DNA from: a virus
Taxonomy: Duplodnaviria; Caudoviricetes
Virus record (IMG/VR): IMGVR_UViG_3300010352_001405
Span: 1 to 64,000 of that record
Direction: 5' to 3' (one strand)
DNA: 64,000 bases
Translations under genes and position numbers: made by a program
Notes under the pieces: generated by a model
Told to the model about the DNA's origin: nothing
What the model saw: only the letters and a program-made list of their open reading frames with translations
Databases searched by the model: none
Shown here: piece after piece, positions 16,945 to 32,754 of the stretch
Position numbering within the stretch: position 1 is the stretch's first letter
Layout of the letters: each line of letters starts with the position of its first letter

Positions 16945-17568
16945 ATGACCAAAATAATTTTTGAATGGTTAAGAAAGGTCGGAAAGGCGAAAGTAAATTG
17001 GAGAGTCGAGTTAAAAAGATTCGTCGCTAATATATATGATGAACTTGATTATATGTATTCTAATAGAAGATTTATTTGGCAGGATATGCATTTACCAGGG
17101 CCACATCCATCAGACAAATCAACATATCAAAATGTTGTCGTGGCGATTGACACATCGGGTTCGATTTCAGATGATAGTTTAAATAAATTTGCCGCGGAAT
17201 TATTGAAATTATTTAAACTTTATAGTGTATTGAATTGTTATGTAATATGGTGTGATAATGACATTACATCTGTTCAAATATTCGAAAAAGCGGATAAGAG
17301 TTTTAAAATAGATAAACTTAAACCAAAAGGTGGAGGCGGAACAAGTTTTAAACCGCCATTTAAATGGGTTCAAAATAACATATTGAAAAAAGGCAAAATC
17401 CCTGCTTTTATGGTTTATTTCACAGATGCTTATGGTGATGCACCAAATATAGGTGAATATTCTATAAAATCATATGCTAATAGAGTATTGTGGGTAATAA
17501 CTAATAACGATCAAGCTTCAAATATTAAATTTGGAAAAAGAATATTTATAGATAAAATACTCGAATGA
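16945..17568 (+). pseudogene. VWA-like (DUF2201-type) C-terminal domain; N-terminal metallopeptidase part missing
   Basis: VNWRVELKRFV, VVAIDTSGSI (MIDAS), GGGGTSFKPPF, VYFTDAYG. Confidence 0.75.
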
Positions 17569-17723
17569 CTTGGTAATTTTGGTAATTCAATTAATTTATT
17601 ACTATAACACCATAATATTTCTAATGTATCTGGTAAATCAGGTAATTCAATTAAATTTTGATTAGATAAATTTAAAAAAGTAATTACGTTTTCAAATAGT
17701 TTATATTTTTTAATGTATTTCAC
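17569..17723 (-). pseudogene. Truncated bacterial-type (LPxLP) LRR gene with CTS-like N-terminus
   Basis: MKYIKKYKLFE...LNLSNQNLIELPDLPDTLEILWCYSNKLIELPKLP, then runs into the antisense strand of the VWA gene. Confidence 0.7.
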
Positions 17724-17823
17724 AAGTTATATTTTTTTGCTAAATATGGTCAATTTTTTCTTATTCTTATATATTATTTTTTTTATGATAAACTTTTTAT
17801 ATATTTGTATATAATAATAATTA

Positions 17824-18381
17824 ATGAAAGAATTAGATATTTATACAGATTGTTCTGGATCTTTAAATGATTTTGGTATATCTATTGTTGTCATTGACAA
17901 CGATGAAGAAAGTATTCAAAATTACAAAACAAATACAGAGTCTTTAAACCATGAATTTAAAACTTTAGATGAATGTGGTAGTACCACAATCGGCGAATTA
18001 TATGCTATATACAAATCGTTATCTAATCTTATGGTAAAGAAAGAAATAAAAAATCATATTAAAATCTATACCGATAATGAAAGTATTTTTATGTTATTAA
18101 ATGGTGTATCTAAATTAAGAAATTGGAAAAAAAATAAAGACAATGACTCATTATTACACATCTTATATTCAAGATGCATGCGCGTTTTAAATGAACATAA
18201 AAATATCGAAGTTCTTTTTATAAAATCTCATATAGGTATATATGGCAATGAAGTAGCAAATATTTATGCCCAGTCGATTAGAAATGATGGGTTAGAATAT
18301 AAAAAAGGTAAAAAAAAATATAATGTTCCGCCTTTAGATAGAGTTAATAGTTTTATTTCAATTTTTAAAAAATTATCTTAA
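17824..18381 (+). CDS. rnhA: Ribonuclease HI-like protein
   Basis: IYTDCSG, GELYAI, IYTDNES, IKSHIGIYGNEVAN. Confidence 0.8.
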   Translation: MKELDIYTDCSGSLNDFGISIVVIDNDEESIQNYKTNTESLNHEFKTLDECGSTTIGELYAIYKSLSNLMVKKEIKNHIKIYTDNESIFMLLNGVSKLRNWKKNKDNDSLLHILYSRCMRVLNEHKNIEVLFIKSHIGIYGNEVANIYAQSIRNDGLEYKKGKKKYNVPPLDRVNSFISIFKKLS

Positions 18382-18578
18382 AATTTTTTTATTTAAATAA
18401 ATATTTGTAATTTTGTAATGTAATATAAAAAATATAAAAACTATGAAAACAAAAATTAAATTGAAGAAACGTAATATCGATTTTATGATCTGTACACTTA
18501 CAGAAAAAGTAATATTTGAAGATATTTCTAAAAAAGAAAGGAAAACAATAAAAAATATTCTCAAAAAACTCGGAGATT

Positions 18579-18797
18579 ATGAAGATCTGTAAAGTTTGTG
18601 GGAATTTTATTCCGGAAGGAAGAATTAAAGCTATACCAAATACACAAACATGTATTGATTGTTCAGACACTGATAAAAAAAAGGATTTCACAGTCATTAC
18701 AGGTAAAACAACATATTCTGAAATAGATATTGTTGATGATCATATATATAATGTTCTTAATAATTTTGATAGAAAAAAATATTCAGAAATTAATTAA
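18579..18797 (+). CDS. DksA/TraR C4 zinc-finger protein
   Basis: CKVCGNFIPEGRIKAIPNTQTCIDC. Confidence 0.85.
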   Translation: MKICKVCGNFIPEGRIKAIPNTQTCIDCSDTDKKKDFTVITGKTTYSEIDIVDDHIYNVLNNFDRKKYSEIN

Positions 18798-18906
18798 AAT
18801 AATTTTTTATTTCAAAAACTTTTTATAATTTTGTAATATAATTAAAAAATAATAAAAAGGAATAAAAATGGAAAAAATTGACATTTTTAATATAATATAT
18901 AAAAAT

Positions 18907-18978
18907 ATGAAAAACATGAATCACAAATATTATAATGATTGTATTATTAATGATAAGCTAAAAATGCTGATTGGATGA
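18907..18978 (+). CDS. Putative attenuator leader peptide 1 (MKNMNHKYYNDCIINDKLKMLIG)
   Basis: Short ORF after TGACATTTTT..TATAATATATAAAA; its last codons contain CTGATTGG, complementary to the terminator arm. Confidence 0.7.
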   Translation: MKNMNHKYYNDCIINDKLKMLIG

Positions 18979-19000
18979 ACTATGTTTATTTAACATAACG

Positions 19001-19036
19001 AAACCCCAATCAGAAATGACTGGGGTTTTTTGTTTT
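19001..19036 (+). terminator. Intrinsic terminator of attenuator 1
   Basis: aaaccccaatcagaaatgactggggttttttg hairpin plus U tract; identical core at 28168. Confidence 0.85.
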
Positions 19037-19058
19037 AATATTGTTGTTTGAAAAATTA

Positions 19059-19125
19059 AAAGTCGACGAGTAGGGACAATCCAGACCTGTAAAATCTTAT
19101 TAGGATGTTCGAAACAGTACTTTGG
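19059..19125 (+). pseudogene. Possible degenerate tRNA-Tyr(GTA) remnant
   Basis: aaagt/acttt ends, CTGTAAA loop, TTCGAAA loop; stems are poor. Confidence 0.25.
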
Positions 19126-19142
19126 ATAGTTTGATATAAAAA

Positions 19143-19219
19143 CGGCGTGTATCACCTCTCTCTGATAAGGAGTTGAAAGTGTAACTGGTCACATGATGGT
19201 TCGACTCCATTCTCGCCGA
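19143..19219 (+). tRNA. Atypical D-arm-less tRNA-like RNA, anticodon GAT (Ile)
   Basis: cggcgtg/ctcgccg acceptor, CTGATAA loop, gatgg-TTCGACT-ccatt T arm, extra hairpin gtg-TAACTGGT-cac in the variable region. Confidence 0.6.
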
Positions 19220-19245
19220 CAAATTGTTTTTTGATTTAATGAAAC

Positions 19246-19323
19246 GGCAAGGTGCTCGAGTGGTCCAAGGGAACCGCCTGCAAAGCGGCATTATGATCGT
19301 GGGTTCGAATCCCACCCTTGTCT
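19246..19323 (+). tRNA. tRNA-Cys(GCA)
   Basis: Cloverleaf; ccgc-CTGCAAA-gcgg; GTTCGAATC; U discriminator. Confidence 0.9.
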
Positions 19324-19369
19324 CATCAATAAAAATAAATTGTTCTTTGAAATTTTGTAAAAATATTAA

Positions 19370-20260
19370 CTTTGTTTGGAAAGTTTCTTCCGAAAGGAAG
19401 AGAAGAATAATGTGATGCGAGTCACAAAAGAGGATGGGTGTCACACCCACCTACCAATATCCAAATGGAAATTGGATCATCCAAAAAAGCATCGTCTTAT
19501 CGCATCCAAGTGCGATCTTCGCTTACCATGCGGAGATAAGATGGAAGAACGTTACTGGTTCTTTGGAAAGAATATATGGGGTAAGCCCCTACATAGAAAT
19601 GTGTTGGTAAGGAGCCTCATTAATTAGGGATTGACACCCCGACGCCAGTTGGTCAAACGTCCCATTATCCGATTAGATAAGATGTAGTTAGTCTGTTCAA
19701 ACACACCAAAGCAAGAGCTAACTAACAATTCCAAAGATGAAGGGTAATTCCGGAATCTTGAAGAATCACACAGTAGAGCTAGTAACTCGAAACGTATTGT
19801 GTGTGTCGTGTATTTTGTACCTCAAAAGGGTATGAATCACAAGAGTAGGCACCACACGGTGACATAGTAAATTTGCTTAATGGTAGAGCAATTCCATTTT
19901 AAGGAATAGGTTGTTGGTTCAAATCCATCATTTATTAACAGGAAAGACCTACTCAACGATAAACGGAAAGTCGTTTAATTCTCAACATCTTCGGATGAAT
20001 TGAGAGTCTGGAAAGCCCCAAGCTGGAAGGATTTGGTTGAAAAATGCACCTAATGGTTTAGCGACCATGTACTGTGGAAACACAGAGGGTAATTGGAAAG
20101 CCGAATATGTTTATCGGGAAAAGTTGAGTCTCCAACTATAAAAAGGCAACGTCGTCGATAGACCTCTTTTGAAGAGGTGGATAAGTTGGGAACCGCTGGC
20201 GGGAGTCGGTAGGATAATACAACAAAGGTATCGATATCAAGGATGTAATCTCAGTCCTTT
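19370..20260 (+). ncRNA. Large structured RNA, probably GOLLD-like (~890 nt)
   Basis: GC-elevated non-coding stretch with dense hairpins (GAAA/TTCG loops) inside a tRNA cluster; contains an embedded tRNA; ends gtaatctcagtcc; boundaries approximate. Confidence 0.6.
19865..19938 (+). tRNA. tRNA-Lys(TTT)-like element embedded in the large ncRNA
   Basis: tagtaaa/tttatta acceptor, gct-taatggtag-agc D arm, attcc-ATTTTAA-ggaat, GGTTCAAATCC. Confidence 0.65.
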
Positions 20261-20271
20261 TAAAAATAAAT

Positions 20272-20344
20272 GGGCTTTAGGTCAAACGGTTAAGATGTAT
20301 CCCTGTCACGGATCACGGAGCGAGTTCAACTCTCGTAAGGCCCG
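20272..20344 (+). tRNA. tRNA-Asp(GTC)
   Basis: gggcttt/aaggccc acceptor, atcc-CTGTCAC-ggat, gcgag-TTCAACT-ctcgt. Confidence 0.85.
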
Positions 20345-20396
20345 CTGTAGTTCTGGGTAATTTGAAATGTCAACCCCCATAGTTCATTGAAATAAT

Positions 20397-20712
20397 GGCT
20401 CGTTAGCTCAGTAGGTAGAGCAGCAGACTGTAAGTAATTGCAGCTTATATGAGTGATCATATTTGAAAAATCGGATGAACTCAGGGAAACCTTCACTCAT
20501 TAAAAATGGGTATGGTAATCCTGATCCAAGCTCAAAGAAGGTCAAATTATGTATTTGAGAAGGAGCAGAGACTAAAAGGTGAGAAAACCAATCAATAAAC
20601 CTTTACAAGCGTCCGACATCTTATAAAAAGATGATGATATAGTCCACCCTATAATGAAAATTATAGATAATGTGTAATCTGTTGGTCGTAGGTTCGACCC
20701 CTACACGAGCCG
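20397..20712 (+). tRNA. tRNA-Asn(GTT) split by a group I intron (exons 20397-20431 and 20675-20712)
   Basis: Joined exons give gcaga-CTGTTAA-tctgt and a full cloverleaf. Confidence 0.9.
20432..20674 (+). mobile_element. Group I intron (IC3-like) with no ORF
   Basis: 5' exon ends in U pairing with G of the IGS (ctgt/gcag); core elements gaactcagggaaacc, ggtaatcctgatccaag, gcagagact, gatatagtcc; terminal G. Confidence 0.9.
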
Positions 20713-20720
20713 CAAAAAGA

Positions 20721-20814
20721 GGGAAAGTAACGGCACTGGTCTGTAAAACCAACCTGCTCAACAAATCGTCGTAGTGGACTTAGCAGTAAGTGAGTTCGAA
20801 TCTCACCTTTCCCA
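20721..20814 (+). tRNA. Atypical D-arm-less tRNA-like RNA, anticodon GTA (Tyr), long variable arm
   Basis: gggaaag/ctttccc acceptor, tggt-CTGTAAA-acca, ctgct/agcag arm, gtgag-TTCGAAT-ctcac. Confidence 0.65.
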
Positions 20815-21074
20815 CAAAAATTATTAATAAAAAAGAATTATGAATTTTAAAGAAAGTGAATCTGGTAAGATTGTTGTGGATGCTTTAATCGAAAGTAAAA
20901 AAATAACAGAATTAAAAAATGAAAGAATAAAAGAATATGAAATGATTCCCAAATATTGCATTCTTTGCGGGAACATACTAAGTTAGAAAATATTACACAA
21001 AAAGTAATGAAAAAATTTTAATTGAAGTCACATCTTGGTATTCAAAAAATGGTATTCCAGAATTACCATTAGAT

Positions 21075-21653
21075 GTGATAACACAAAAAATTTTAGAATT
21101 GGTTCCAATTGACATGACTGAAGATATGATAGTTCCTAAATTTTCTACATTAACAGAAAAAAGTGAATTGGCTTTCAAATGTTCTTTTTTAGAAACAGTT
21201 TCACCTTATTATGAATATTCTGTGTGGGGGTGTGGATTTAGTAAAATAAAAAGATTAGGAACCATAGATGATTATAAATTAATGATAACAACATTAAATA
21301 AAATTCAGGATATTATTCCGGATTTTAAAGTATATTTCAAAACTTGTATTGAAACAATTGAAGAAATCATAAAAGAATGGGATAATAAATATTTTTGGAG
21401 TTATATATGTTGGACTGATCATGGTTATGCAATGCATGATGTTGATGGTTGGTTTACTAAATTTTATAGAAAATATAATGGAAAACCAAAAAGTGTAACA
21501 TCCTTTTCAAAACATATAACAAAAGTAGATTATTTACATGGTGACATAAATTATACGATGTATATGGGATTGTTAACTTCTTCATATGAAGATGGTTGTT
21601 ATGTTCCAGAATTTACAAAAATTATAACAAAACAAGAGAAAAAAGAAAAGTAA
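21075..21653 (+). CDS. DUF4419-like protein; true 5' end probably near 20840 and disrupted
   Basis: PKFSTLT...YYEY...CGFSKIKRLGTIDDY pattern. Confidence 0.5.
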   Translation: MITQKILELVPIDMTEDMIVPKFSTLTEKSELAFKCSFLETVSPYYEYSVWGCGFSKIKRLGTIDDYKLMITTLNKIQDIIPDFKVYFKTCIETIEEIIKEWDNKYFWSYICWTDHGYAMHDVDGWFTKFYRKYNGKPKSVTSFSKHITKVDYLHGDINYTMYMGLLTSSYEDGCYVPEFTKIITKQEKKEK

Positions 21654-21874
21654 TTGTAAGAGGATATATCGCACTAATCGTTATAAAAACGAAAGTGAGG
21701 AAACTCAGCCAACCGTTGCTTAAAAGTAGGAGATTAAAAATCGTTAATACTACTGAGGGTTAAACTCAAAAAGGTCTTACCATTCCGGTATAGTGGGTGA
21801 GCAACACGAAAAGACAAGGTAGAGGACAATAGACAAATGATATAATAAAACAGAAGGCCGGTTACGCTCAACAA
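21654..21874 (+). ncRNA. rnpB: Minimal RNase P RNA-like ribozyme
   Basis: GAGGAAACTCAGCC...AGACAAATGAT...AAACAGAAGGCCGGTTA conserved regions with covarying P4 (gcc/ggc); P2 tatatc/gatata; P3 cact..agtg; followed by a terminator. Confidence 0.7.
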
Positions 21875-21887
21875 CTACAAAGTTTCA

Positions 21888-21920
21888 AAAAATCTGACCA
21901 TTTTGATCAGGTTTTTTTAT
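21888..21920 (+). terminator. Intrinsic terminator
   Basis: aatctgacca-tttt-gatcaggtt hairpin plus T tract. Confidence 0.6.
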
Positions 21921-21941
21921 TAACAAAAAAAATAAAATATT

Positions 21942-22157
21942 ATGGGAGCTTTAGAAGAAAGAATCAAACAAGAAAATGAAATTTTGAGAAAAATTAAACG
22001 TGAAATCATCAAATGCGCAAAGAAAGGTGAATTACACTATTATTGGGAAATAACAGGGTTAAGTGATTCCACGGTTAAAAGTATAGTAAAGGAATTAGAA
22101 TCTGATGGAAAGTATGTTAATAGTAAAGGAATGAATTTTAAAATAGTGAGATGGTGA
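21942..22157 (+). CDS. Hypothetical protein
   Basis: ORF track. Confidence 0.55.
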   Translation: MGALEERIKQENEILRKIKREIIKCAKKGELHYYWEITGLSDSTVKSIVKELESDGKYVNSKGMNFKIVRW

Positions 22158-22202
22158 AAAATTGACTTTTTTTATTTAATATATATAAAGAAAATAAAAA
22201 AT

Positions 22203-22709
22203 ATGAGAGTTAGAAGCGGTTTTGTGAGTAATAGTAGTAATTCATCTTTCATAATAATATATCTTCCGGATAATTTTGATCCTGAAGTTTATATCGATTA
22301 TATTAATGAAAAAAATAAAAAAAAGACTTTTCCGAAATCAGTAGTAAATGATTTAAGACAATTAGTTAAGAAAGGACATGTAAATGAACAAAACGATTGT
22401 GAAGATTATTATGAATTATATGATGCTGTTTATAAATTGAATATATTTCAAGGAGAAACTAATGAAGAATGTGGGTATATTCAAGCCGTAAAGAAAAAAT
22501 ATTTTGAAAAGTTGAATAAAATTGATGCTGAATATAATACAGATAAGATGAAACAGGCGACATTAGAAATTAGAGAAAAAAGAGAAAAAATGAAATTGAA
22601 ATATAAACATATAGATCCCTATGGTGAAGAAGATTGGGAGGTAGAAGAATTAAAAATAAAAACATTATATGATTTTATGAACGAATCATTTGAAAAAAAA
22701 TCTAAATAA
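22203..22709 (+). CDS. Phage protein of the MKxRxGFVSNSSSSSF family, with DPYGEEDW tag
   Basis: MRVRSGFVSNSSNSSFII; HIDPYGEEDW; CTS-like IKTLYDFMNES near the C-terminus. Confidence 0.65.
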   Translation: MRVRSGFVSNSSNSSFIIIYLPDNFDPEVYIDYINEKNKKKTFPKSVVNDLRQLVKKGHVNEQNDCEDYYELYDAVYKLNIFQGETNEECGYIQAVKKKYFEKLNKIDAEYNTDKMKQATLEIREKREKMKLKYKHIDPYGEEDWEVEELKIKTLYDFMNESFEKKSK

Positions 22710-22765
22710 AACAAAAATTAAAAAAAAATATTAATATATAAATAAAAAAAATAATTAAAAAGAAT

Positions 22766-23242
22766 ATGACAAAATTAGAAAATCTTTTAAATTTCGATGA
22801 TTTCGAAAAAAATTGGAAATCAAAAGAACAAAAATCAACGAAAAGAACTGATGTCGGTGTTGATGTTTTGAACGAAAATTTATATATGAAGGTTATGGAT
22901 CAAGAAGCATCTGGTTGGAAAGGTAATCTTGAAAAATTTATAGCTAGCATTAAAAAGGCTATTGAAGAAAATCAAGTTAAGGATATTAAAATAACTGATA
23001 ATTCAGTGACTTTTAGTATTCGTGGACGTAAACATAAAATAAATAAAGAAAATGGATCCATTACACTGTGGAGAACAAAGGCCACAGCTTTCAGAAAAAC
23101 TACAACTGATGAAGCGGGTAGAGTAAGAGAGGAAAGAAAACGTCAAAAAACCAGAGAACAAGTTGAAGTCAATATTCCTATCAATAAAGCCGATGCTAAT
23201 CAGATTTATAATGATTTGAAAGAAAAAACCGATGACGAATAA
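22766..23242 (+). CDS. Hypothetical protein, CTS-like N-terminus
   Basis: LLNFDDFE...DVLNEN; downstream terminator at ~23306-23338. Confidence 0.6.
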   Translation: MTKLENLLNFDDFEKNWKSKEQKSTKRTDVGVDVLNENLYMKVMDQEASGWKGNLEKFIASIKKAIEENQVKDIKITDNSVTFSIRGRKHKINKENGSITLWRTKATAFRKTTTDEAGRVREERKRQKTREQVEVNIPINKADANQIYNDLKEKTDDE

Positions 23243-23376
23243 TAAGTCATTTATGTACATAATTTAAGATTTGGGTCCTCTCTCTAATGCGTCCATTTCT
23301 TTTTCACCGAATCATGAAATATTGATTCGGTTTTTTATTGTATAAACTTTTATATAATTTAATTATAAATGTGTGA

Positions 23377-24696
23377 ATGGAAATAAATAAAAAAATAACA
23401 AATTCTATTGATCAAATGATATCTGATGCTATGTTGGAGATTCAGTATTATGGTGAATTTTGTCAATTTATTAATTTTAAAAAATCAATTAGAATAAAAA
23501 CATGTGGGGTTACAGTCGACATTCAAGGAATGCGTTTTTATTATAATGATGAATTTGTAAATGGATTGGATCAAGAAGAAATGAATTTTATTATGTTACA
23601 TGAAATATTTCATCTTCTTTGGGATCATCAAACTAGGGAACGTCGATGTGGATATGATCATGATTTGAGTAACATGGTCCAAGATATGATAATAAATCAA
23701 GTTATCAATACAGATATTATTTTAAGAATGGAAGAATCAAATAAAAGAGAACATCGCAATTTATCTTTTGCTAAAATACCTGTTAATAAAGAATCAAATA
23801 AAATTTGGGTTCTTACAATGCCGAAAGAATATAAAGGTAAATTGATCTATGAAGACATGTATGAATGGATATTTGAAGAAAAGAAAAAATATGACGAATG
23901 GAAAAATAATTGTAAATGCGATAAAGATAAAAAATGTATATGTAATAGAGCCGATGGTAAAGAATCATGCGAGTGTGGAAATTGTCCAGTAAGCGATTAT
24001 CTAAGAAAATTATTTGACCAATTAGAATTAGGTATTTTAGATTTTTTAGATAGTCATTTGCCGTCAGATATGCCTGAAGATTTCAGAAAATCAATTATAG
24101 AAAATATTAAAAATAATTTAAGAAATAGAGGATTTGAAACAGCAGATATATTATCAACCATAGGTAAATTAACAAAGTCCAAAAAAGATTATATTAAAAG
24201 TATAAAAATCTGTATTAATGAATTATTTGGAATACATAAAGAAAAATCAATAACTAAAAAAAATAGAAGATCTATTAATGGTGTTAAAGGCAAAAAAAAA
24301 GGAGCCTTCGCATTATCTGTTATTTTAGATGTTTCTGGATCTATGGAATCTTATTTTGAAAAAGCTTTATCATATATTTTTCAAAATGATATAATTGTTC
24401 AACTTTTACAAATAGACACTGAAGTTAAATCGCATACCACTGTCAAAAATAAAAGAGAGATGCAAAAAATAAAAATATGTGGTTTAGGAGGCACAACAAT
24501 TTCACCAGCTATACAATATGTGGTAAATAATAAAAAATTAAAGAAATTAAATCTTTTAATTCTTACAGACGGTGAAACAGATATATTAGATTTTAGGGGG
24601 TTTAATAATAAATGTATGATTTTAAGCACTCATAAAAAATGTGAAACTATAAATATAAGTGGATGCAAAATTAAACAAATTGTGATTAAAGACTAA
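23377..24696 (+). CDS. DUF2201-type HExxH metallopeptidase-VWA protein (MoxR partner)
   Basis: LHEIFH; ILDVSGSM MIDAS; GLGGTTI; ILTDGE. Confidence 0.85.
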   Translation: MEINKKITNSIDQMISDAMLEIQYYGEFCQFINFKKSIRIKTCGVTVDIQGMRFYYNDEFVNGLDQEEMNFIMLHEIFHLLWDHQTRERRCGYDHDLSNMVQDMIINQVINTDIILRMEESNKREHRNLSFAKIPVNKESNKIWVLTMPKEYKGKLIYEDMYEWIFEEKKKYDEWKNNCKCDKDKKCICNRADGKESCECGNCPVSDYLRKLFDQLELGILDFLDSHLPSDMPEDFRKSIIENIKNNLRNRGFETADILSTIGKLTKSKKDYIKSIKICINELFGIHKEKSITKKNRRSINGVKGKKKGAFALSVILDVSGSMESYFEKALSYIFQNDIIVQLLQIDTEVKSHTTVKNKREMQKIKICGLGGTTISPAIQYVVNNKKLKKLNLLILTDGETDILDFRGFNNKCMILSTHKKCETINISGCKIKQIVIKD

Positions 24697-25501
24697 AATC
24701 ATTTTTTTTATTCTTTTTAGAATTAATATATCTTTTCGTAATACATAAATTTGAAATATCGCCTATATCAAATGGATCTAAATTATTCTCATAACCATAA
24801 AAAATACTTATTTTGTGATCTATTGTTGGATAATAACCGTCGCTCGGTTTTAAAAGAAAATTTTTTATTATATGTTCTTTATCATAAAAATCATAACCAT
24901 TCCACATTTCAAAAAGTTCCTTTTGATTTTTTCTAGTGATACTCCAAACTTTATTTTTATATTGATAAAAATCAGTTTGTTCATCGTAGGATCTTATGAA
25001 TCCACTTAATATTTTAGATTTTATTGAACTATCAATAGCTTTTTTATGAGTTTCTGGTAAAATAAAATTTACTTTTACTCCAAACCTTTCATACATTGTT
25101 TTTTCTCTCTTTTTCTTATTTTCTTCTAATTTTGAAGTATTATCGACTCCGTATTTTTCAATAAAATATTGTTTTAATTGTTCATATTTTTCTTTCGATT
25201 GAAGGGGATAATCAGAACCATATTTTATATTATTTGTTTTTTTAACTTTCTCTTTAGAACACAATTGACTACAAGCATAATAACCACCATTTAATATATT
25301 TTCATTATATTTTTGATAACTTATATTTTTAATTTTTCCACAAATATCACATTTTGTTTCAATTCTGTGGGTTGAGCATATTGGCAGATCTTCAATTTTA
25401 GCCAACAATTCTTTTTTATTTTTGACATCATATCCTTTTAATATATAATAATTTATATTTCTATTGGTTATTTTTACCATAACTTCTTTATTTATTATCA
25501 T
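24686..25501 (-). CDS. HNH-type free-standing endonuclease with zinc ribbon and KYGV repeats
   Basis: CDICGK, KYGVDN, PTIDHKIS...NLCITKRYINSKKN. Confidence 0.7.
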   Translation of the reverse strand: MIINKEVMVKITNRNINYYILKGYDVKNKKELLAKIEDLPICSTHRIETKCDICGKIKNISYQKYNENILNGGYYACSQLCSKEKVKKTNNIKYGSDYPLQSKEKYEQLKQYFIEKYGVDNTSKLEENKKKREKTMYERFGVKVNFILPETHKKAIDSSIKSKILSGFIRSYDEQTDFYQYKNKVWSITRKNQKELFEMWNGYDFYDKEHIIKNFLLKPSDGYYPTIDHKISIFYGYENNLDPFDIGDISNLCITKRYINSKKNKKNDFSL

Positions 25502-25640
25502 TTATATTTTTTATTTTTTCAAATTCTTTTTTAATTAAATTTTCAATCCACTCATTTAATTTCAACGTATTTTCTTTTGAATATTTTTTCAATTCTCTAT
25601 GGAGATTTTCATCTATTTTTAATGTTTTTGATTTTTTCAT
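25488..25640 (-). CDS. Small ribbon-helix-helix-like DNA-binding protein
   Basis: Manual translation MKKSKTLKIDENLHRELKKYSKENTLKLNEWIENLIKKEF; overlaps the endonuclease start. Confidence 0.6.
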   Translation of the reverse strand: MKKSKTLKIDENLHRELKKYSKENTLKLNEWIENLIKKEFEKIKNINDNK

Positions 25641-25697
25641 AAACTAAATTCTTTTTTTTATTATATATTAAATAAAAAAAGTGGAAAAAAGTAGAAA

Positions 25698-26123
25698 ATG
25701 GAAATAAATTATTTCGATTTTTTAAGAATGTATCCTGACATAATTATTGAAAATTTTGTTGATAAAATAGATTTCATCAATTATATTGAAATTTTACACA
25801 AAAAATGTATAGGAAAGAAACCTTTGATTAAAATTGATCAAAATAAATTATCAGAAATAGTATATAATGGAAAAACAAATAAAGATAATCTTGATATATT
25901 TAAAAATGAAATAAAAATAAATATATATGACGATACTATAATTATCATATTACATACAGATAAAAGAAGATTGTTCTATTTTAATGACTCAAATGAGAGA
26001 TTCGGTCAATTTTATATATCTGGTAGATTTAATTTATTTTTAGATTCAAAATTTTATTATCTAAATAATAATGAAATAAAAAATATAAAAAGAAGTTTAT
26101 TAATCGACAAATGCTTGATATAG
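25698..26123 (+). CDS. Hypothetical protein, paralog of 48596-48964
   Basis: INYFDFLRMYPD vs INYFKFLEQYPE; C-terminal KRSLLIDK. Confidence 0.6.
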   Translation: MEINYFDFLRMYPDIIIENFVDKIDFINYIEILHKKCIGKKPLIKIDQNKLSEIVYNGKTNKDNLDIFKNEIKINIYDDTIIIILHTDKRRLFYFNDSNERFGQFYISGRFNLFLDSKFYYLNNNEIKNIKRSLLIDKCLI

Positions 26124-26356
26124 ATGGTGATATATTTTATATTAATAATGATAATCTTTTACATAGAGAAGATGGTCCTTCTATTGAGTTCAAATCTGGA
26201 ATTAAATGGTGGTTAAAAAACGGAAGACTTAATAGAGATGACGGACCAGCAATTTTAAATAAAAAATATAAAGAATACTGGGTTAATGGACACAGGGCGA
26301 ATGAAGAAGAAATTAAAAATATAAAAAGAAATTATTGGATTAGAAAAATGATATGA
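26111..26356 (+). CDS. LHREDGPA-repeat protein
   Basis: LHREDGPSIE, LNRDDGPAI. Confidence 0.7.
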   Translation: MLDIDGDIFYINNDNLLHREDGPSIEFKSGIKWWLKNGRLNRDDGPAILNKKYKEYWVNGHRANEEEIKNIKRNYWIRKMI

Positions 26357-27555
26357 TAAGTGAAGAAAAATTAAATAAACTATCGGAAAGAGAAAGACTC
26401 TATATGGAGATATTATTGAGTGGAAATTCTCTTTATTTAAGAGGCAAACCTGGTATGGGGAAATCAGCTATAAGTTTATCTATTACTAAAAAAATCGGAA
26501 TTAAACATTTAGATAAAAGACTCAGTCAAATCGATGAAACAGATATTGGATTATATCCTGTGTTAAATGATGCTTATTCAAAATTAGAAAAAATTGGAAA
26601 ACTAAAAGATCTAGGATATTTGACAATCGAAGAATTCGAAAATATGAAAAAATCACTGCTGAAAAATATAAAAAATGGTCAAGTTGAATTATTACATTTT
26701 GCAATTCCAGACTGGGCTTTTAGTGCCAATGTAGAACCAACTTTAATACATCTAGAAGAACTAAATCGAGCTAATTTACATGTTAGAAACGCAGCACTTC
26801 AACTTCTCAATGAAAGACAGATAGGCGATTTAAAATTGAATGATAATGTTTATTTAATGTCATCTGGTAATCTTGGTGAAACCGATGGAACAGAGGTGGA
26901 TGAAATGGATTTAGCATTGAGCAATAGACTCGTCATACTAGATCACGACCTACCATATGAAGAATGGATTAGTGAATATGCTCAGTATCACGTATGGCAT
27001 GTAATAATAGATTATATTAGAACAAATGCTGGCGAATATTATAAAATGCCAAACGATAAAGAAATTAGATATGCTTCACCAAGAAGTTGGACAAATTTAT
27101 CAAAATTTATAACATATAAATTCGGTAAAAATCCTAAATTGGATGAAGTTATACCACTATTAATGAATCATGGATGCGGTAGAGGATTCATAGGCAATAG
27201 TATAACCAATTTCATAAGATATTGTCAAGATATATCAAACATAAATATAAACGATATTCTTATGAGATGGGAAGACGTAAAAGATGATGTTTCTAAATTT
27301 CATAGATCCAGAATTTCTGAATTGATAGGTAATTTAAAATATATGGATTTAACGAAATTAAAAAAGAATGAGATCGATAATTTATTGAATTTTTTAGATT
27401 CTCTTAGGGGAAATGGAAACGATGATGAATTGACTAGTTATATTATACATTTATTGGATAATACTGATATCGAGAAAAATTATGAAATTCATAAAGTAAT
27501 AATTAATAGATTTAAAGAAAAAGTTAAACAATTAGAAAAATACACGAAAATTTAA
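26353..27555 (+). CDS. MoxR-like AAA+ ATPase with internal SHOCT-like insertion
   Basis: GKPGMGKS, RLSQIDETD, LEELNRA, SSGN, ALSNRL, ASPRSW. Confidence 0.85.
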   Translation: MISEEKLNKLSERERLYMEILLSGNSLYLRGKPGMGKSAISLSITKKIGIKHLDKRLSQIDETDIGLYPVLNDAYSKLEKIGKLKDLGYLTIEEFENMKKSLLKNIKNGQVELLHFAIPDWAFSANVEPTLIHLEELNRANLHVRNAALQLLNERQIGDLKLNDNVYLMSSGNLGETDGTEVDEMDLALSNRLVILDHDLPYEEWISEYAQYHVWHVIIDYIRTNAGEYYKMPNDKEIRYASPRSWTNLSKFITYKFGKNPKLDEVIPLLMNHGCGRGFIGNSITNFIRYCQDISNININDILMRWEDVKDDVSKFHRSRISELIGNLKYMDLTKLKKNEIDNLLNFLDSLRGNGNDDELTSYIIHLLDNTDIEKNYEIHKVIINRFKEKVKQLEKYTKI

Positions 27556-27561
27556 ATATTC

Positions 27562-27957
27562 TTAATTCCAATCCTCTTCACCATAAGGATCTTCTAAAGT
27601 TATTATTTTTTTAGGCTTTAATGAGTCTATTAATTTTTTTTCTGATTCAGTTAAATTGGATAATATTTCTAGTTTATCACAACCATAAATATTAAAAATT
27701 TTTCCTTTTGTGCTTCTTAAAGCCAAGCGTATTGGTTGGTCTTGTTGAAGACTTATTAAAACTGACGCGACTTCAATGTTTTTTAATACTGTTTTATCAC
27801 ATACATGAATATTTATTGACTTTTTATATAATAATCTATCCAATATTCCCTTAGCTTTAACAATATCGTATTTATCATATAACTTATATACGTATATTAC
27901 ATTTTCACCATCTTCAATGTTTTCATTTAATTTATCATAAGTCAAAATATATTTCAT
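27562..27957 (-). CDS. Hypothetical protein with CTS-like N-terminus and C-terminal DPYGEEDW
   Basis: MKYILTYDKLNE...EDPYGEEDWN. Confidence 0.6.
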   Translation of the reverse strand: MKYILTYDKLNENIEDGENVIYVYKLYDKYDIVKAKGILDRLLYKKSINIHVCDKTVLKNIEVASVLISLQQDQPIRLALRSTKGKIFNIYGCDKLEILSNLTESEKKLIDSLKPKKIITLEDPYGEEDWN

Positions 27958-28069
27958 TTATTTATATATTATTTTTTTATTTCATAAACTTTTATTAATT
28001 TTGTATTTATAAAATAGAAAAAAATGACATTTTTATTATAATATATAAAAATACTAAAAAATAAAAATT

Positions 28070-28144
28070 ATGAACTTTCGAATAGAATATATGATACAAG
28101 AACAAATGCAACAGATCAAAAATCTGATTGGGTATGCTGTGTGA
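28070..28144 (+). CDS. Putative attenuator leader peptide 2 (MNFRIEYMIQEQMQQIKNLIGYAV)
   Basis: Same promoter context and CTGATTGG antiterminator strand as leader 1. Confidence 0.7.
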   Translation: MNFRIEYMIQEQMQQIKNLIGYAV

Positions 28145-28167
28145 TAACTATAAGATTGTTATAATAT

Positions 28168-28200
28168 AACCCCAATCAGAAATGACTGGGGTTTTTTGTT
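28168..28200 (+). terminator. Intrinsic terminator of attenuator 2
   Basis: aaccccaatcagaaatgactggggttttttg, identical to the copy at 19002. Confidence 0.85.
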
Positions 28201-28205
28201 TAAAT

Positions 28206-28268
28206 GCTCCCATCGTCTAAAGGTAGGACAAAAGCTTTTCATACTTTAAATGCGATTCGCTGGGAGTA
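28206..28268 (+). pseudogene. tRNA-Glu(TTC) with shortened T arm
   Basis: gctccca/tgggagt acceptor, Glu-type D arm, TTTTCAT loop; T arm reduced to gcg-att-cgc. Confidence 0.6.
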
Positions 28269-28407
28269 CAAAAATTAAAAAAAAATGAAAAAAATAGAAA
28301 GAAAAGATTTCTGATTATCATAAGTAAAGAAAAATTGTTCATTGACATATTGAAATAAAATTTTTGGGGAAAGTGGGTCGATGTAGTCGAATCCAAACTC
28401 AAAAAAT

Positions 28408-28484
28408 GCCGATGTGGGCGGAGTTGGCTATCGCATGTGAATCATAATCACAACACGTCGCTGGTTCGAATCCAGCCATCGGTA
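28408..28484 (+). tRNA. tRNA-Met/Ile2(CAT)
   Basis: tgtga-ATCATAA-tcaca; gctgg-TTCGAAT-ccagc. Confidence 0.85.
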
Positions 28485-28487
28485 CAT

Positions 28488-28562
28488 TGCTCCTTAGCGC
28501 AACTTGGTTAGAGCTAGTGGTTTTGAGCCACAGGGTTGGAGGTTCGAGTCCTTCAGGAGCAG
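28488..28562 (+). tRNA. tRNA-Gln(TTG)
   Basis: tgctcct/aggagca acceptor; gtgg-TTTTGAG-ccac. Confidence 0.85.
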
Positions 28563-28565
28563 CAC

Positions 28566-28636
28566 AGTTTCTTGATGTAACGGAAGCATATAATTTTCTG
28601 AAAATTATTGTCTTGGTTCAAATCCAAGAGAAACTA
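28566..28636 (+). tRNA. tRNA-Gln(CTG)
   Basis: agtttct/agaaact acceptor; taatt-TTCTGAA-aatta. Confidence 0.8.
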
Positions 28637-28746
28637 CTAAATAATATTAAAAAATAATTGACCTTTTATTCATTTCGATCTACGAATTTAAAACTTTTTA
28701 CACTGTATAATATATAACATTAAAAATTTTTGGAAACATAGTAATT

Positions 28747-29277
28747 ATGAAAAAATTATTTATTATTTTATTTATCTTAACTTCTTTTATATTAAACGCT
28801 CAAACAAAAGGAACGTTCATTGATATACGTGATAATAAAACATACAAAACTATCAAAATAGGTGATCAAATTTGGATGAATGAAGATCTAAAATATAATG
28901 ATACTACATTATATAACTATCAAGTGATTATGAACGGAACAAAACCAGATACAAATCAAATCAAAGGGATTTGTCCATATGGTTGGCATGTACCAAATGT
29001 AAGTGAATGGTATAAATTATTAATAACTGTTGGAAGACAAAATGCTTCTGAAAAATTAAGAGATTATAATGGATTTCACGCATCTATGAATGGTAGATAT
29101 AATTTTGATAAAAAATTGTTAGAAAATAAAGGAAGTCATTCATATTACTGGACATCAACTGAAAGAGATCAAAGTACAGCTTGGGTATATTTTATATATG
29201 AAATGGCACCATCTGTAAATAAAATAGATGGTGATAAAAATTTCGGATATTCTTTAAGATGTATAAAAAATTTTTAA
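28747..29277 (+). CDS. Secreted FISUMP (Fibrobacter succinogenes major paralogous) domain protein
   Basis: Signal peptide; DIRDNKTYKTIKIGDQIWM, GICPYGWHVP, YYWTST, GYSLRCIK. Confidence 0.85.
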   Translation: MKKLFIILFILTSFILNAQTKGTFIDIRDNKTYKTIKIGDQIWMNEDLKYNDTTLYNYQVIMNGTKPDTNQIKGICPYGWHVPNVSEWYKLLITVGRQNASEKLRDYNGFHASMNGRYNFDKKLLENKGSHSYYWTSTERDQSTAWVYFIYEMAPSVNKIDGDKNFGYSLRCIKNF

Positions 29278-29354
29278 AAATAATTTTTTAAATCAAAAAA
29301 TAAATTCTATATTTGTATTATAAATATGGTTCATTGAAATTTTGAAAAATATAT

Positions 29355-29440
29355 AGCGGGATAGTCTAATGGTAGGATCCTAGGCTCATAATCTAGAGAA
29401 TGGTAAAGTCCAGTTGGAGGTTCGATTCCTTCTCCCGCAA
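29355..29440 (+). tRNA. Initiator-like tRNA-Met(CAT) with extended variable arm
   Basis: 1:72 mismatch, gcggga/tcccgc acceptor, ctagg-CTCATAA-tctag, 19-nt variable region. Confidence 0.75.
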
Positions 29441-29444
29441 CTAA

Positions 29445-29590
29445 AAGGTGTTTTTTGTTTTAATGTAGCTAATGCAAAGATATCAGGGCAAGACCTGATG
29501 CGAGGGTATGATGTCGAAGTCATATCAAACAAAAATCTAGAGGGTGTAGCAAATCCCTTACATTAAAACAAAGAAAGTCTAGACCACCTT
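29445..29590 (+). ncRNA. Unassigned structured RNA
   Basis: 14-bp closing stem tttgttttaatgta/tacattaaaacaaa enclosing three hairpins. Confidence 0.6.
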
Positions 29591-29599
29591 AAAATATAC

Positions 29600-29672
29600 G
29601 GTCTGGTATGTCAATGGTTAGACGGCAATTCTTATAAAATTGAGGTTGGTGGTTCAAGTCCACCCCAGACTA
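29600..29672 (+). tRNA. tRNA-Ile(TAT)
   Basis: ggtctgg/ccagact acceptor; caatt-CTTATAA-aattg; ggtgg-TTCAAGT-ccacc. Confidence 0.9.
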
Positions 29673-29743
29673 CGATATGATAAAAGTTCAAGTTGTAAAA
29701 AACGACTTTTTTATTTTAATATATAAAATAAAAAAGGAACATT

Positions 29744-30508
29744 ATGGAAAAAAATGAAATAAAAAATAAAATTTTAAATTCAAAGTCTAGAACTGAAGCT
29801 AGTAAAAAAATATTCAATTATTCAAATAGAACAACCTTATTAAAAATAGATTATTATTTAAAAGAATTTGATTTAGTAGGTTTTTTCAAAAAGAAAAAAA
29901 TTGAAAAAAAATGTTTAAATTGCGGAATCATAATAAATAGAAGAAATAAGTTTTGTTGTCAATCTTGTTCGGCTATTTATAATAATAAAAATAGACAATT
30001 GACAGAAGATACTAAAAATAAAATAAGTAAATCTTTAAAGGGTAGAAATAGAGTAGATGTAAAAAGTAAAGGAAAGACTATTATTATAAATTGTAAAAAT
30101 TGTAACAATGAATTTTTATTTTTAAAATATAAATTAAAAGAAGGAAAATCTAATTTTTGTAGTAAAAGTTGTTACCATGAATATAGAACTAAAAATAAAA
30201 AAGATATAAAACATTTACAAAAATTAAATAGAATAAAATATAATTATGGATTAAACGAAGATGAATATATAAAATTGTTTGAAAATCAAAATTATATTTG
30301 TCCTATTTGTAATATTAATCTAAATGATGTGAAAGCTTGTGTTGATCACGAACACAACACTGGTAAAATAAGGGGAATTTTATGTGATAAATGTAATAAG
30401 GGTATTGGTCATTTTGAAGATAATATAAAACTATTCGAAAATGCTATAATTTATTTAAAGACTTTTTATGAAAAAGAAAATATTAAAAATATAAATATGA
30501 TTCAGTAA
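29744..30508 (+). CDS. Endonuclease VII-like (His-Me) homing endonuclease within the tRNA cluster
   Basis: QNYICPIC...VDHEHNTGKIRGILCDKCNKGIGHF; N-terminal CxxC..FCS fingers and NUMOD3-like motif. Confidence 0.85.
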   Translation: MEKNEIKNKILNSKSRTEASKKIFNYSNRTTLLKIDYYLKEFDLVGFFKKKKIEKKCLNCGIIINRRNKFCCQSCSAIYNNKNRQLTEDTKNKISKSLKGRNRVDVKSKGKTIIINCKNCNNEFLFLKYKLKEGKSNFCSKSCYHEYRTKNKKDIKHLQKLNRIKYNYGLNEDEYIKLFENQNYICPICNINLNDVKACVDHEHNTGKIRGILCDKCNKGIGHFEDNIKLFENAIIYLKTFYEKENIKNINMIQ

Positions 30509-30628
30509 ACCAGCTTCTCTATTCGCAGGCCTATGGCACAGGACACAGAATATGCGCCCGTAACGTAAGATAACGAGAGAACAATTAAGGAGGGAATGGC
30601 GAGTCTCCCTATCTAACTGGAGCTGTTT
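30508..30628 (+). ncRNA. Unassigned structured RNA
   Basis: cagcttc/ggagctg closing stem with internal hairpins; GC-rich island. Confidence 0.5.
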
Positions 30629-30674
30629 CACAATTAATCATAGAAATTACACGAACTAACAAATAAAAAAAATA

Positions 30675-31040
30675 ATGGAAAATTTTTTATCTATCCAGAG
30701 TCTCATTTTGATTATAATTGTGGTTGTTATACTATTTTTTTTATTTAGAGAAGTAAACTGTTGGTATTGGAAAATCAATAAAAGAATCAAATTACAGGAA
30801 GATATTATTTTACATCTAAAAATCATTTCTAATTCTATAAATGATCAAAATGAAAACACTAAAAATGAAATTTCTAAAAACGATATTAATTTGACAGATG
30901 ATGAAAAAAGAATTATAGATTCTTTTGAAATAAAAGAAGGTGAAAAAATAATCATACATAAAAGATTGAGAAACATAATAAAAGTATCAGAAAAAGATCA
31001 AAGACGTCTTCAAATGGAAGATTGGATAGTAGTTGGGTAA
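30675..31040 (+). CDS. Hypothetical membrane protein
   Basis: N-terminal TM, FREVNCWYWKIN. Confidence 0.6.
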   Translation: MENFLSIQSLILIIIVVVILFFLFREVNCWYWKINKRIKLQEDIILHLKIISNSINDQNENTKNEISKNDINLTDDEKRIIDSFEIKEGEKIIIHKRLRNIIKVSEKDQRRLQMEDWIVVG

Positions 31041-31071
31041 TTAAATTTGGAAACTATTAAAAAAAACATAC

Positions 31072-31293
31072 ATGAAAACACTGAAAAAAGGAGAAGATTT
31101 TAAAAGAGTTAAGGATTTTTCTTATGAAGATCTTAATAAAATGAATTCCCTTCTTAAAGAAGGATGGAATTATTGTTCAAAACAAGAATATAAAGAAACT
31201 TTCAAAGGCGAAAAAACAGTAACGGAAGTAAAATCTGAAGAAAAAAAGAAAGATAAAGAAAACAAAAAGAAAGAATCTAAAAAGAAGAAATAA
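31072..31293 (+). CDS. Hypothetical basic protein
   Basis: GWNYCSKQEYK. Confidence 0.55.
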   Translation: MKTLKKGEDFKRVKDFSYEDLNKMNSLLKEGWNYCSKQEYKETFKGEKTVTEVKSEEKKKDKENKKKESKKKK

Positions 31294-31351
31294 TTGGCTG
31301 AAAATTAAAATAAACAAAGAATAAAATAAAATATATATAGAAAAAGAAAAT

Positions 31352-31426
31352 GCTCTCGTCGTCTAATCGGTTAGGACATCGCCTTTTCACGGCGAAGATT
31401 TGCGAGTTCGAGTCTCGTCGAGAGTA
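31352..31426 (+). tRNA. tRNA-Glu(TTC)
   Basis: tcgcc-TTTTCAC-ggcga; full cloverleaf. Confidence 0.9.
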
Positions 31427-31480
31427 CAAAAAAGATTTAGATTATAATCCTTCTAATAATGTAGATTTTAAAAGAATTGA

Positions 31481-31557
31481 ACTCCCGTCGTCTAGTGATC
31501 CAGGACGTCAGATTCTCATTCTGAAGATCGTGGGTTTAAATCCCATCGGGAGTACCA
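31481..31557 (+). tRNA. tRNA-Glu(CTC) with encoded CCA
   Basis: tcaga-TTCTCAT-tctga; T loop TTTAAAT is atypical. Confidence 0.85.
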
Positions 31558-31590
31558 GAATTATTTAAGAGAAAACACGGTATCAATTTA

Positions 31591-31650
31591 AAACAAGTCT
31601 TCATATATTTTATATTTTTCATATTATATAAAATATATGAAGACTTGTTT
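31591..31650. repeat. 25-bp perfect inverted repeat
   Basis: aaacaagtcttcatatattttatat / atataaaatatatgaagacttgttt, 10-nt spacer. Confidence 0.9.
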
Positions 31651-32108
31651 ATTGATAAATATGGAAGAGATTTTATAAAAATATATGATGTGAATCCATA
31701 TGGAAAATAAAAACAATGTTTGTGAAGTCTGTGGGAATCCTTGTAAAAAAGTTTATTGTCCTAGGAAATGATTCGGTAAGGGTGTAAATAAAAAATATAA
31801 ACAAATAAAAAAAAATAACATAAAATAACATTATATGTTGGTACAAAAAATAACTCATATAACATGAAACCATTCTTTCAATCAATTTTATTCATTTTTT
31901 CTAAGTGGGATATGTCTCTTGATGAATTTAATATGGTAGGTAAAATTTTATTTTATGTTCCATGTTATTTAAATAATATATTAACACAAATATGGTATTT
32001 CATATTATTTCCAATAATATATTTAAATTTTTTATTTGTTAATAAATTCAGTGGAATTGATACATTAATGAATATTTATTTAATAAAAAATTCATATAAA
32101 AATAAAAT

Positions 32109-32753
32109 TTAAGAATTTTTTTTCAAAACACTTAACCATTTTTGATCTATTCTGTTCCAATATTCATGTCCCTCTGGTGTACTCCACCAATATATATAAT
32201 CTATAAATCTTCTTGGTTTGATGTTATTTAAAATTTTCTCAAAATTATCATCGTTGATTTCTTTTCTGAATTGATCATATACATTATCAATATATCTTTT
32301 ATAAATTTTATTGTCTACTAAAAATTTTTTGAACAAAGCATACGGGTCTAATTCATCCCAATTTTCTTCACCGTAAGGATCTATATCTTCATTTTTTTCG
32401 TATATTCTGTTAATTTTTTTCAATTTAATCATCCATTTCACGTTCAATTTGGTCCAATAACTACCACCTTGATTAGTATTTTTCCAATAGAAAGCACCTC
32501 TTATAAACTGTGTTGGATTTGCTTGCGTTAAATATTCATCTATATCGTTCCACCCGTTTGTTTTTAAATTATCTTTGTAATTTTCGAGTGATTTATGTTT
32601 AGTTAGGAAATCTTTAAATTTATTTTCTATATCATCATCATCCCAATTTTCTTCACCGTAAGGATCTACATCAGAATGTTTATTAATTCTTTTTTTTCTA
32701 AAAGGATTCCAATTGAAATCTTCGTTATATGTTTCAAAATTTATAATAATCAT
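32109..32753 (-). CDS. Protein with two tandem homologous domains, each preceded by DPYGEENW
   Basis: DPYGEENW..FKxFL..WxxTxxGxxYWxxxxxKW occurs twice. Confidence 0.7.
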   Translation of the reverse strand: MIIINFETYNEDFNWNPFRKKRINKHSDVDPYGEENWDDDDIENKFKDFLTKHKSLENYKDNLKTNGWNDIDEYLTQANPTQFIRGAFYWKNTNQGGSYWTKLNVKWMIKLKKINRIYEKNEDIDPYGEENWDELDPYALFKKFLVDNKIYKRYIDNVYDQFRKEINDDNFEKILNNIKPRRFIDYIYWWSTPEGHEYWNRIDQKWLSVLKKNS

Positions 32754-32754
32754 T

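Follow-up and report, generated by a model that had tools for sequence, protein, structure and literature searches.

The window analysed here is the first 64 kb, AT-rich, of the 163-kb IMG/VR virus record IMGVR_UViG_3300010352_001405 (Caudoviricetes), a phage genome labelled G000. Ahead of a cluster of transfer RNA (tRNA) genes it contains a short leader unit, unit A, here proposed to be a transcription attenuator, with a promoter motif, a 23-codon open reading frame (ORF), an antiterminator strand, a small spacer hairpin and an intrinsic terminator (Table 1). The ORF and its codon counts had been described in an earlier reading made from the letters of the DNA (the sequence-only reading), and both were confirmed: four Asn, four Lys, three Ile (all ATT), two Tyr, two Asp and one Cys make up 16 of the 23 codons, and Gln and Glu are absent. 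A 36-codon in-frame ORF starting at 18868, with a good AAAGGA upstream, was rejected as the unit; its ATG is replaced by ATA, GTG or CGG in relatives, and the 23-codon frame is therefore the conserved one.

The antiterminator strand CTGATTGG, which overlaps the final three sense codons of the leader (Leu-Ile-Gly), is the exact 8-nucleotide (nt) complement of CCAATCAG in the 5' arm of the terminator, as the sequence-only reading had claimed. This complementarity exceeds chance, the duplex having -11.6 kcal/mol against -4.9 +/- 1.6 for dinucleotide shuffles (z = -4.3). The small hairpin and the strong terminator were found where that reading had placed them, the latter with -15.6 kcal/mol and one A.C mismatch in its stem. 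Across homologs, the stem of the spacer hairpin is conserved and its loop variable, and the hairpin probably brings the two antiterminator strands together; the terminator is near-identical across 12 homologous loci. The whole unit A stretch also folds far better than shuffles (z = -4.1).

The promoter-like stretch reported upstream of the ORF was a reasonable call, being a recurrent phage motif that ends in AATATATAA. Its extended form is conserved in all leader units, and a pattern scan for it in three related phage records, LR756501 among them, gave 18 hits, with 0 in a reversed control; tRNA leaders, of the classes A to D described below or of a fifth class (E), account for 11 of these hits. 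The shorter AATATATAA box also stands before many protein genes of the window's genome and is therefore most simply a phage promoter, and it is absent from the interval between terminator A and the tRNAs.

Behind the terminator, the sequence-only reading had listed tRNAs with Ile-GAT, Cys, Lys, Asp, Asn and Tyr anticodons. ARAGORN called Cys, Lys and Asp only on the unmodified operon, and it called Asn-GTT once the group I intron was removed in silico; Tyr is matched by Rfam, and these identities stood. The Ile-GAT unit scores below the cut-off and has no D arm, and is here called tRNA-like. The group I intron of tRNA-Asn(GTT) is ORF-less and lies between anticodon positions 35 and 36, with similar introns at the related loci L010 (9424-9666) and L008 (5812-6025). 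GOLLD RNAs are known from phage tRNA regions and may have tRNAs inside them; here, the GOLLD RNA encloses the tRNA-Lys. At gathering score, no GOLLD was found in seven loci of relatives, four of them including class A operon sequence.

Table 1. Coordinates of leader units A and B, of tRNA operon A and of associated features in the window.
Feature	Coordinates	Strand	Remarks
DksA/TraR C4 zinc-finger gene	18579..18797		72 amino acids; PF01258
Candidate host-type promoter box TAATTTTG	18826..18833	+	fits Bacteroidota-type -7 box TAnnTTTG
Extended phage promoter motif	18871..18902	+	GAAAAAA..TGACA..TTTTT..AATATATAA; directly upstream of leader ORF
Leader ORF, class A	18907..18978	+	ATG at 18907; 23 codons plus TGA (18976-18978)
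Control codons 2-17 of leader A	18910..18957	+	14/16 read by downstream Asn, Lys, Tyr, Asp, Cys, Ile tRNAs
Antiterminator strand CTGATTGG	18967..18974	+	complement of CCAATCAG
Spacer hairpin	18981..18997	+	between antiterminator and terminator; stem 18981-18986 / 18992-18997
Intrinsic terminator	19001..19036	+	stem 19001-19012 / 19017-19028; loop GAAA; T-run 19026-19036; CCAATCAG at 19006-19013 in 5' arm
tRNA-like unit, GAT (Ile) anticodon loop	19143..19219	+	without D arm; 22.3 bits, below cut-off 29
tRNA-Cys(GCA)	19246..19324	+	ARAGORN, Rfam
TTCTTTGAA box, copy after tRNA-Cys	19339..19349
Possible internal promoter TTTG-N19-TAACTTTG	19344..19374		between tRNA-Cys and GOLLD region
GOLLD RNA (RF02032)	19799..20257	+	155.2 bits, cut-off 150; encloses tRNA-Lys(UUU) 19865-19939
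tRNA-Asp(GTC)	20272..20345	+	ARAGORN, Rfam
tRNA-Asn(GTT)	20397..20713	+	split by 243-nt group I intron 20432-20674 (RF00028, 94.5 bits)
tRNA-Tyr(GTA)	20721..20814	+	long variable arm; Rfam tRNA match 33.4 bits; anticodon read off the DNA letters
Unit B (paralog, 28011-28205)	28018..28199	+	same promoter motif; 24-codon leader 28070-28144; antiterminator 28124-28133; terminator 28168-28199 (T-run 28189-28199)

Unit A is one of four such units in the 163-kb record, one ahead of each tRNA cluster, and all 21 ARAGORN-detected tRNAs fall in those four clusters. Units A and B lie in the window, and the other two, with matching architecture, lie outside it at about 130.6 kb and 138.4 kb of the record, before the remaining two clusters. 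The leader of unit B has four Gln codons, Met, Glu and Ile(ATA), and its cluster has a Glu-like mini tRNA, Met, Gln-UUG, Gln-CUG, a second CAU tRNA (Met/Ile) and Ile-UAU, with two Glu tRNAs further on. Leader C has six Leu codons of four kinds, ahead of four Leu tRNAs, and leader D has three His, five Ser, two Phe, Trp and Lys, ahead of Trp, His, Phe, three Ser and Lys-CUU tRNAs. Class E was found in LR756501, a 735-kb uncultured phage which contains all five classes A to E, class B included, in one genome; its 42-codon leader has in its centre Thr, Gly, Ala, Pro, Arg and Val codons in many synonymous forms, and the cluster comprises four Arg, three Thr, two Val, two Ala, three Gly and one Pro tRNA. 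This leader is GC-rich although the LR756501 genome is AT-rich. The classes A to E combined cover all 20 amino acids.

The mini tRNA that opens cluster B is Glu(UUC)-like (28206-28268; 63 nt, with a 3-base-pair T stem, 36.8 bits), and a normal tRNA-Glu(UUC) is found at that place in the relative G002. Degenerate or truncated tRNA-like units thus follow directly after both terminators of the window (19055-19219 and 28206-28268). Among the tRNAs of cluster B there are also protein genes (29744-30508 and 28747-29277), encoding an endonuclease VII/NUMOD3 homing-endonuclease-like product and a Fib_succ_major-domain protein.

The same arrangement is found in relatives. In a blastn search aimed at distant matches among phage records, exactly 18865-19036 matched LR756501, at 80% identity, with the flanks unmatched, and the similarity of homologs to unit A (about 80%) is in general limited to the span from promoter to terminator. 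The array behind the LR756501 class A unit contains three Ile-GAT, Cys, three Asp, three Asn and Tyr tRNAs. Class A units were also picked up by pattern scans in eight metagenome contigs and two IMG/VR phages, and there, too, the genes behind them are tRNAs for Ile, Cys, Asp, Asn, Tyr or Lys. Leu-rich leaders stand ahead of Leu clusters in relatives, His/Ser/Phe/Trp/Lys leaders ahead of Trp-His-Phe clusters, and Gln/Met/Glu leaders ahead of Glu-Met-Gln clusters. A pattern scan for class B gave nothing beyond two known relatives, and an IMG/VR 16-mer scan for class D was set aside as non-specific (>119 chance hits). Terminators of the AAAACCCCGA type in relatives were likewise set aside as ordinary, since they follow a cold-shock-protein gene. 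Judged by sequence, the leader family appears to be a small clade.

The frame of leader A is open in 10 distinct homologs (21-23 codons), with the ATG and the stop kept and all indels being multiples of three. The order of the Tyr, Asn, Asp, Cys and Ile codons is shuffled between these genomes and the composition is kept, which fits selection on codon content and not on peptide sequence.

For a quantitative comparison, the decodable codons of each cluster were taken as a set and the long ORFs of the phage itself (G000) as background. Over the whole leader, the binomial p values of units A to D against their own clusters are 0.0012, 0.0029, 0.0086 and 0.00028, and no off-diagonal p is below 0.2. 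The matches are concentrated in codons 2-17, of which 14/16, 10/16, 6/16 and 11/16 match the own cluster, as compared to 2/6, 0/7, 0/6 and 1/12 after codon 17. Against 9078 sixteen-codon gene windows, codons 2-17 have on-diagonal z values of 3.7, 4.8, 4.0 and 6.0, and off-diagonal values of at most 0.5. Fisher's combined p for codons 2-17 is about 4e-11, a value that is somewhat optimistic because this range was picked after the fold result described below; the whole-ORF p values are unaffected by that choice. Covariation of leader codons with downstream anticodons in homologs, which the sequence-only reading had raised, is thus borne out, as each of the five leader classes, in four phage genomes, matches its own tRNA cluster and no other.

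These results bear on the possibility that the unit is a stand-alone small gene for a micro-protein, or a small RNA, with its own terminator, the tRNAs being transcribed from their own promoters and the codon likeness being a by-product of AT richness. The unit does have its own promoter and a strong terminator, a possible internal promoter lies within the operon, and an Ile-Gly end is common to all leaders. However, AT bias does not explain cluster-specific matching, least of all for the Leu-rich leaders or for the GC-rich Thr/Gly/Ala/Pro/Arg leader in AT-rich genomes, and a shuffled order with a kept composition speaks against a peptide that acts by folding or binding. The common Ile-Gly end coincides with the antiterminator nucleotides, which covary with the terminator. 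A stand-alone gene or small RNA is thus regarded as very improbable.

The pairing between leader end and terminator is conserved across classes. In all 16 leaders of classes A to D tested, the upstream stretch that pairs best with the 5' arm of the terminator is at ORF nt 54-71, that is, at codons 18-21 (x-Ile-Gly); the duplexes have 8-10 base pairs and -11.6 to -16 kcal/mol (z = -2.5 to -6.2 vs dinucleotide shuffles). The class E pairing is found further along, at nt 92-106. Across units, the terminators consist of a hairpin of -12 to -19 kcal/mol and a T-run, 17-47 nt past the leader stop codon, a distance at which a terminating ribosome leaves hairpin formation unhindered.

Compensatory changes are found in this duplex. 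The ATTGG/CCAAT pairing of classes A to C becomes ATCGGGG/CCCCGAT in class D of the window's genome and TTCGGGG/CCCCGAA in class D of relatives, and a T:A pair of classes A and B becomes G:C in class C of relatives. In total, three positions have double changes, between or within classes, and 82% of the positions pair in register, as compared to 14-49% when the strands are slid. These values come from an anchored count in Python in which three class C relatives were mis-anchored, their correct duplex being taken from a separate duplex table; a count on MAFFT alignments was dropped, as class D was mis-registered.

Folds with a ribosome placed on the leader agree with the position of the matched codons. 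When the transcript is folded before the 3' arm of the terminator is made, the probability of the antiterminator is 0.84-1.0 in most leaders with the ribosomal A site at or before codons 14-17, and has dropped to about 0 once the ribosome is at codons 16-20, the exact point differing between leaders; the expected pattern is seen in all 16 leaders. The matched codons thus occupy positions at which a ribosome, if stalled, would not cover the antiterminator.

Here it is proposed, with a probability of roughly 0.76, that the region is a ribosome-mediated transcription attenuator, of the trp/his/ilv type, gating the phage tRNA operon. Transcription would begin at the phage promoter motif just upstream of the leader, and the 23-codon leader would be translated by host ribosomes as RNA polymerase proceeds. 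With fast decoding of the Asn, Lys, Tyr, Asp, Cys and Ile codons (2-17), the ribosome would reach Leu-Ile-Gly-stop and cover CTGATTGG, so that the terminator hairpin would form and the transcript would end at the T-run. With a charged cognate tRNA being scarce, decoding would be slow and the ribosome would stall upstream of CTGATTGG, which could then pair with CCAATCAG before the 3' arm is made, allowing read-through into the Ile-like, Cys, Lys/GOLLD, Asp, Asn and Tyr genes. As its products would be the very tRNAs being tested, the circuit would act as a negative-feedback controller of tRNA supply. By this arrangement, the phage probably makes a tRNA set only when its codons are read slowly, and GOLLD, being inside the gated operon A, would share its regulation with the tRNAs for Asn, Lys, Tyr, Asp, Cys and Ile. 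In this model the architecture and its conservation, the match of codons to clusters, the covariation and the geometry of the folds are observed, whereas leader translation, conditional read-through, the direction in which the switch responds and its physiological trigger are inferred.

Several observations weigh against the attenuator. At equilibrium, folds with the full terminator favour the terminator in classes A, C and D at any ribosome position, and only class B switches, its terminator probability rising from mostly <0.05 to 0.95. The sequence-only reading had called for both conformers to be folded: the trp-like geometry appears in the fold made before the 3' arm, and the equilibrium folds of A, C and D go to the terminator, so the model requires co-transcriptional kinetics. 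Together, the folds support a trp-type switch that would be kinetic rather than thermodynamic. Moreover, the antiterminator forms without a ribosome in 13/16 leaders and is sequestered in 3/16, with no clear trp-like superattenuated state; many minimum-free-energy folds pair the ORF start with the segment after the stop codon over long range. For ribosome binding, an AAGGAAG motif found 7-9 nt upstream of the ATG in most class A homologs has been lost from the window's copy A by an 8-nt deletion, and only A-rich leaders are found in classes B to D. The first gene past terminator A is merely a degenerate, Ile-GAT-like unit; relatives carry normal tRNA-Ile(GAT) genes in the class A operon. The possible internal promoter between tRNA-Cys and the GOLLD region is a good Bacteroidota-type match, and transcription from it could reach the distal genes of cluster A without passing the attenuator. 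Finally, the matching is marginal at the level of isoacceptors, with 32/38 anticodons having a strictly cognate codon in their own leader against 28.6 expected from synonymous resampling (P = 0.047), and it is therefore claimed at the level of amino acids or codon families, with no finer tuning.

The folds without a ribosome suggest that, unlike in trp, the untranslated default is probably ON. Since the untranslated RNA favours the antiterminator in most leaders, all five operons would be opened at once whenever translation is lost, as would be expected if the attenuator reported general ribosome availability or coupling and served as an infection-stage timer instead of a codon-specific sensor. 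A sensor of this general kind would have no need of five different codon compositions that each go with one cluster, and this reading is considered highly unlikely.

T-box riboswitches, too, stand ahead of translation-related genes and choose between terminator and antiterminator according to the state of a specific tRNA. It could accordingly be asked whether the leader RNA is a riboregulator independent of translation, which would bind uncharged tRNA in a T-box-like manner, or a phage or host protein, and so choose between terminator and antiterminator; the pair of alternative structures and the link to tRNA identity are T-box hallmarks too. T-boxes, however, bind uncharged tRNA directly, through one specifier codon and the T-box sequence and without ribosomes, whereas here an in-frame ORF contains as many as 14 matched codons, which stand for up to six amino acids, with all matched triplets in one frame and the ATG and stop codon kept through indels. 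The leader, of about 130 nt, is also too short for a T-box. No match to the T-box family (RF00230) was found at E up to 1 in 17000-33000 of the window or at gathering score in seven related loci, and no match to the Rfam amino-acid leader families (His, Leu, Thr, Trp, Phe) was found in the unit or in the relatives' loci scanned. A riboregulator of this kind is therefore extremely unlikely.

The closest counterparts of the proposed attenuator are the enterobacterial leader-peptide attenuators (trpL, hisL, leuL, pheL, thrL and ilvGMEDA), in which, as known for the trpL/hisL/ilv type, the position of the ribosome on the leader ORF sets terminator versus antiterminator. Common to both are a short leader rich in regulatory codons, an antiterminator overlapping the leader end and its exclusion of the terminator; a common logic, in which the ribosome position decides the outcome, is suggested here by the architecture and the folds. 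Several amino acids per leader are found in ilv and thr as well, and up to six here. In contrast to the enterobacterial systems, the units described here are phage-encoded, most copies have no clear 1:2 anti-antiterminator, and the downstream genes, instead of being for amino-acid biosynthesis or aminoacylation, are tRNAs, including an intron-bearing one, GOLLD and other RNAs, so that the output would feed back on the sensed quantity.

Leader-peptide attenuation of a component of the translation apparatus is known from pheST of E. coli, which encodes phenylalanyl-tRNA synthetase and is preceded by the pheM leader. That system is cellular and has a synthetase as target and a single amino acid as signal, whereas here the targets are tRNA genes and a set of units partitions the tRNA repertoire. 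The novelty is thus leader-peptide attenuation with tRNA genes as the target. The sequence-only reading knew of no attenuator tuning tRNA arrays, and a full-text literature search likewise found none before tRNA genes, in phages or otherwise, although an older cellular precedent may exist (E. coli tRNA-Phe genes, 1980s); for phage tRNA clusters with GOLLD, no regulatory leader is described in the literature searched. To our knowledge, the regulation of phage tRNA genes is essentially uncharted, and these genes are usually treated as constitutive cargo for codon usage or counter-defence.

On a wider scale, it seems reasonably probable that a clade of giant phages distributes a tRNA set complete for all 20 amino acids over five operons, each behind an attenuator written in its own codons, as a codon-group-specific feedback controller of tRNA supply and the first case of ribosome-mediated attenuation of tRNA genes, with GOLLD co-regulated with one group. 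Such a controller would restore tRNA groups limited by host shut-off, codon-usage mismatch or tRNA-targeting defences. A narrower version, which takes up the anticodon nucleases named in the sequence-only reading, has the same architecture serve as a counter-defence sensor, in which the loss of host tRNAs to anticodon nucleases (PrrC-, RloC- or colicin-type) would trigger replacement phage tRNAs only under attack. In agreement with it, the circuit would sense defined codon groups and put out the matching tRNAs, class A includes Lys, Asn, Asp and Tyr, which are tRNA families targeted by PrrC-type and colicin E5-type nucleases, and the Asn tRNA has an intron in its anticodon loop. However, the five classes span all 20 amino acids, many without a known nuclease, which points to general supply control, and cleavage looks the same in sequence as ordinary scarcity or poor charging. 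The restriction to counter-defence is therefore considered unlikely.

If the feedback controller is correct, these phages would gauge how fast given groups of codons are decoded and replenish only those tRNAs that run short, and a textbook bacterial mechanism would extend to a new class of targets with direct feedback. The leader units would also provide a sequence signature for spotting regulated tRNA operons in other phages, as well as compact, modular, codon-specific sensors for synthetic biology, and the presence of GOLLD in a translation-responsive operon would be a hint to its function.

Further elements were found around the leader units. The candidate host-type box TAATTTTG fits the motif TAnnTTTG, which matches the -7 element of Bacteroidota promoters; the same box recurs at this position ahead of the other three units of the record (B to D) and in most relatives, the motif occurring 0.88 times per kb by chance. 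It is a candidate host-type promoter and hints at a Bacteroidota host. The TTCTTTGAA box is conserved a few nt after the class A terminators in relatives (L029, L032) and recurs in the window after tRNA-Cys; possible roles are those of a processing site or of a promoter element. The DksA/TraR gene is the immediate upstream neighbour of attenuator A. Bacterial DksA-type factors act on rRNA and tRNA promoters, and a link between this gene and the control of the tRNA operon is conceivable. Lastly, at about 89.6 kb on the minus strand of LR756501 (L020), a copy of the extended promoter motif has no ORF or tRNA after it; what follows is a structured and apparently non-coding stretch, about 100 nt long and GC-richer, that ends in a T-run and may be an unassigned small RNA.

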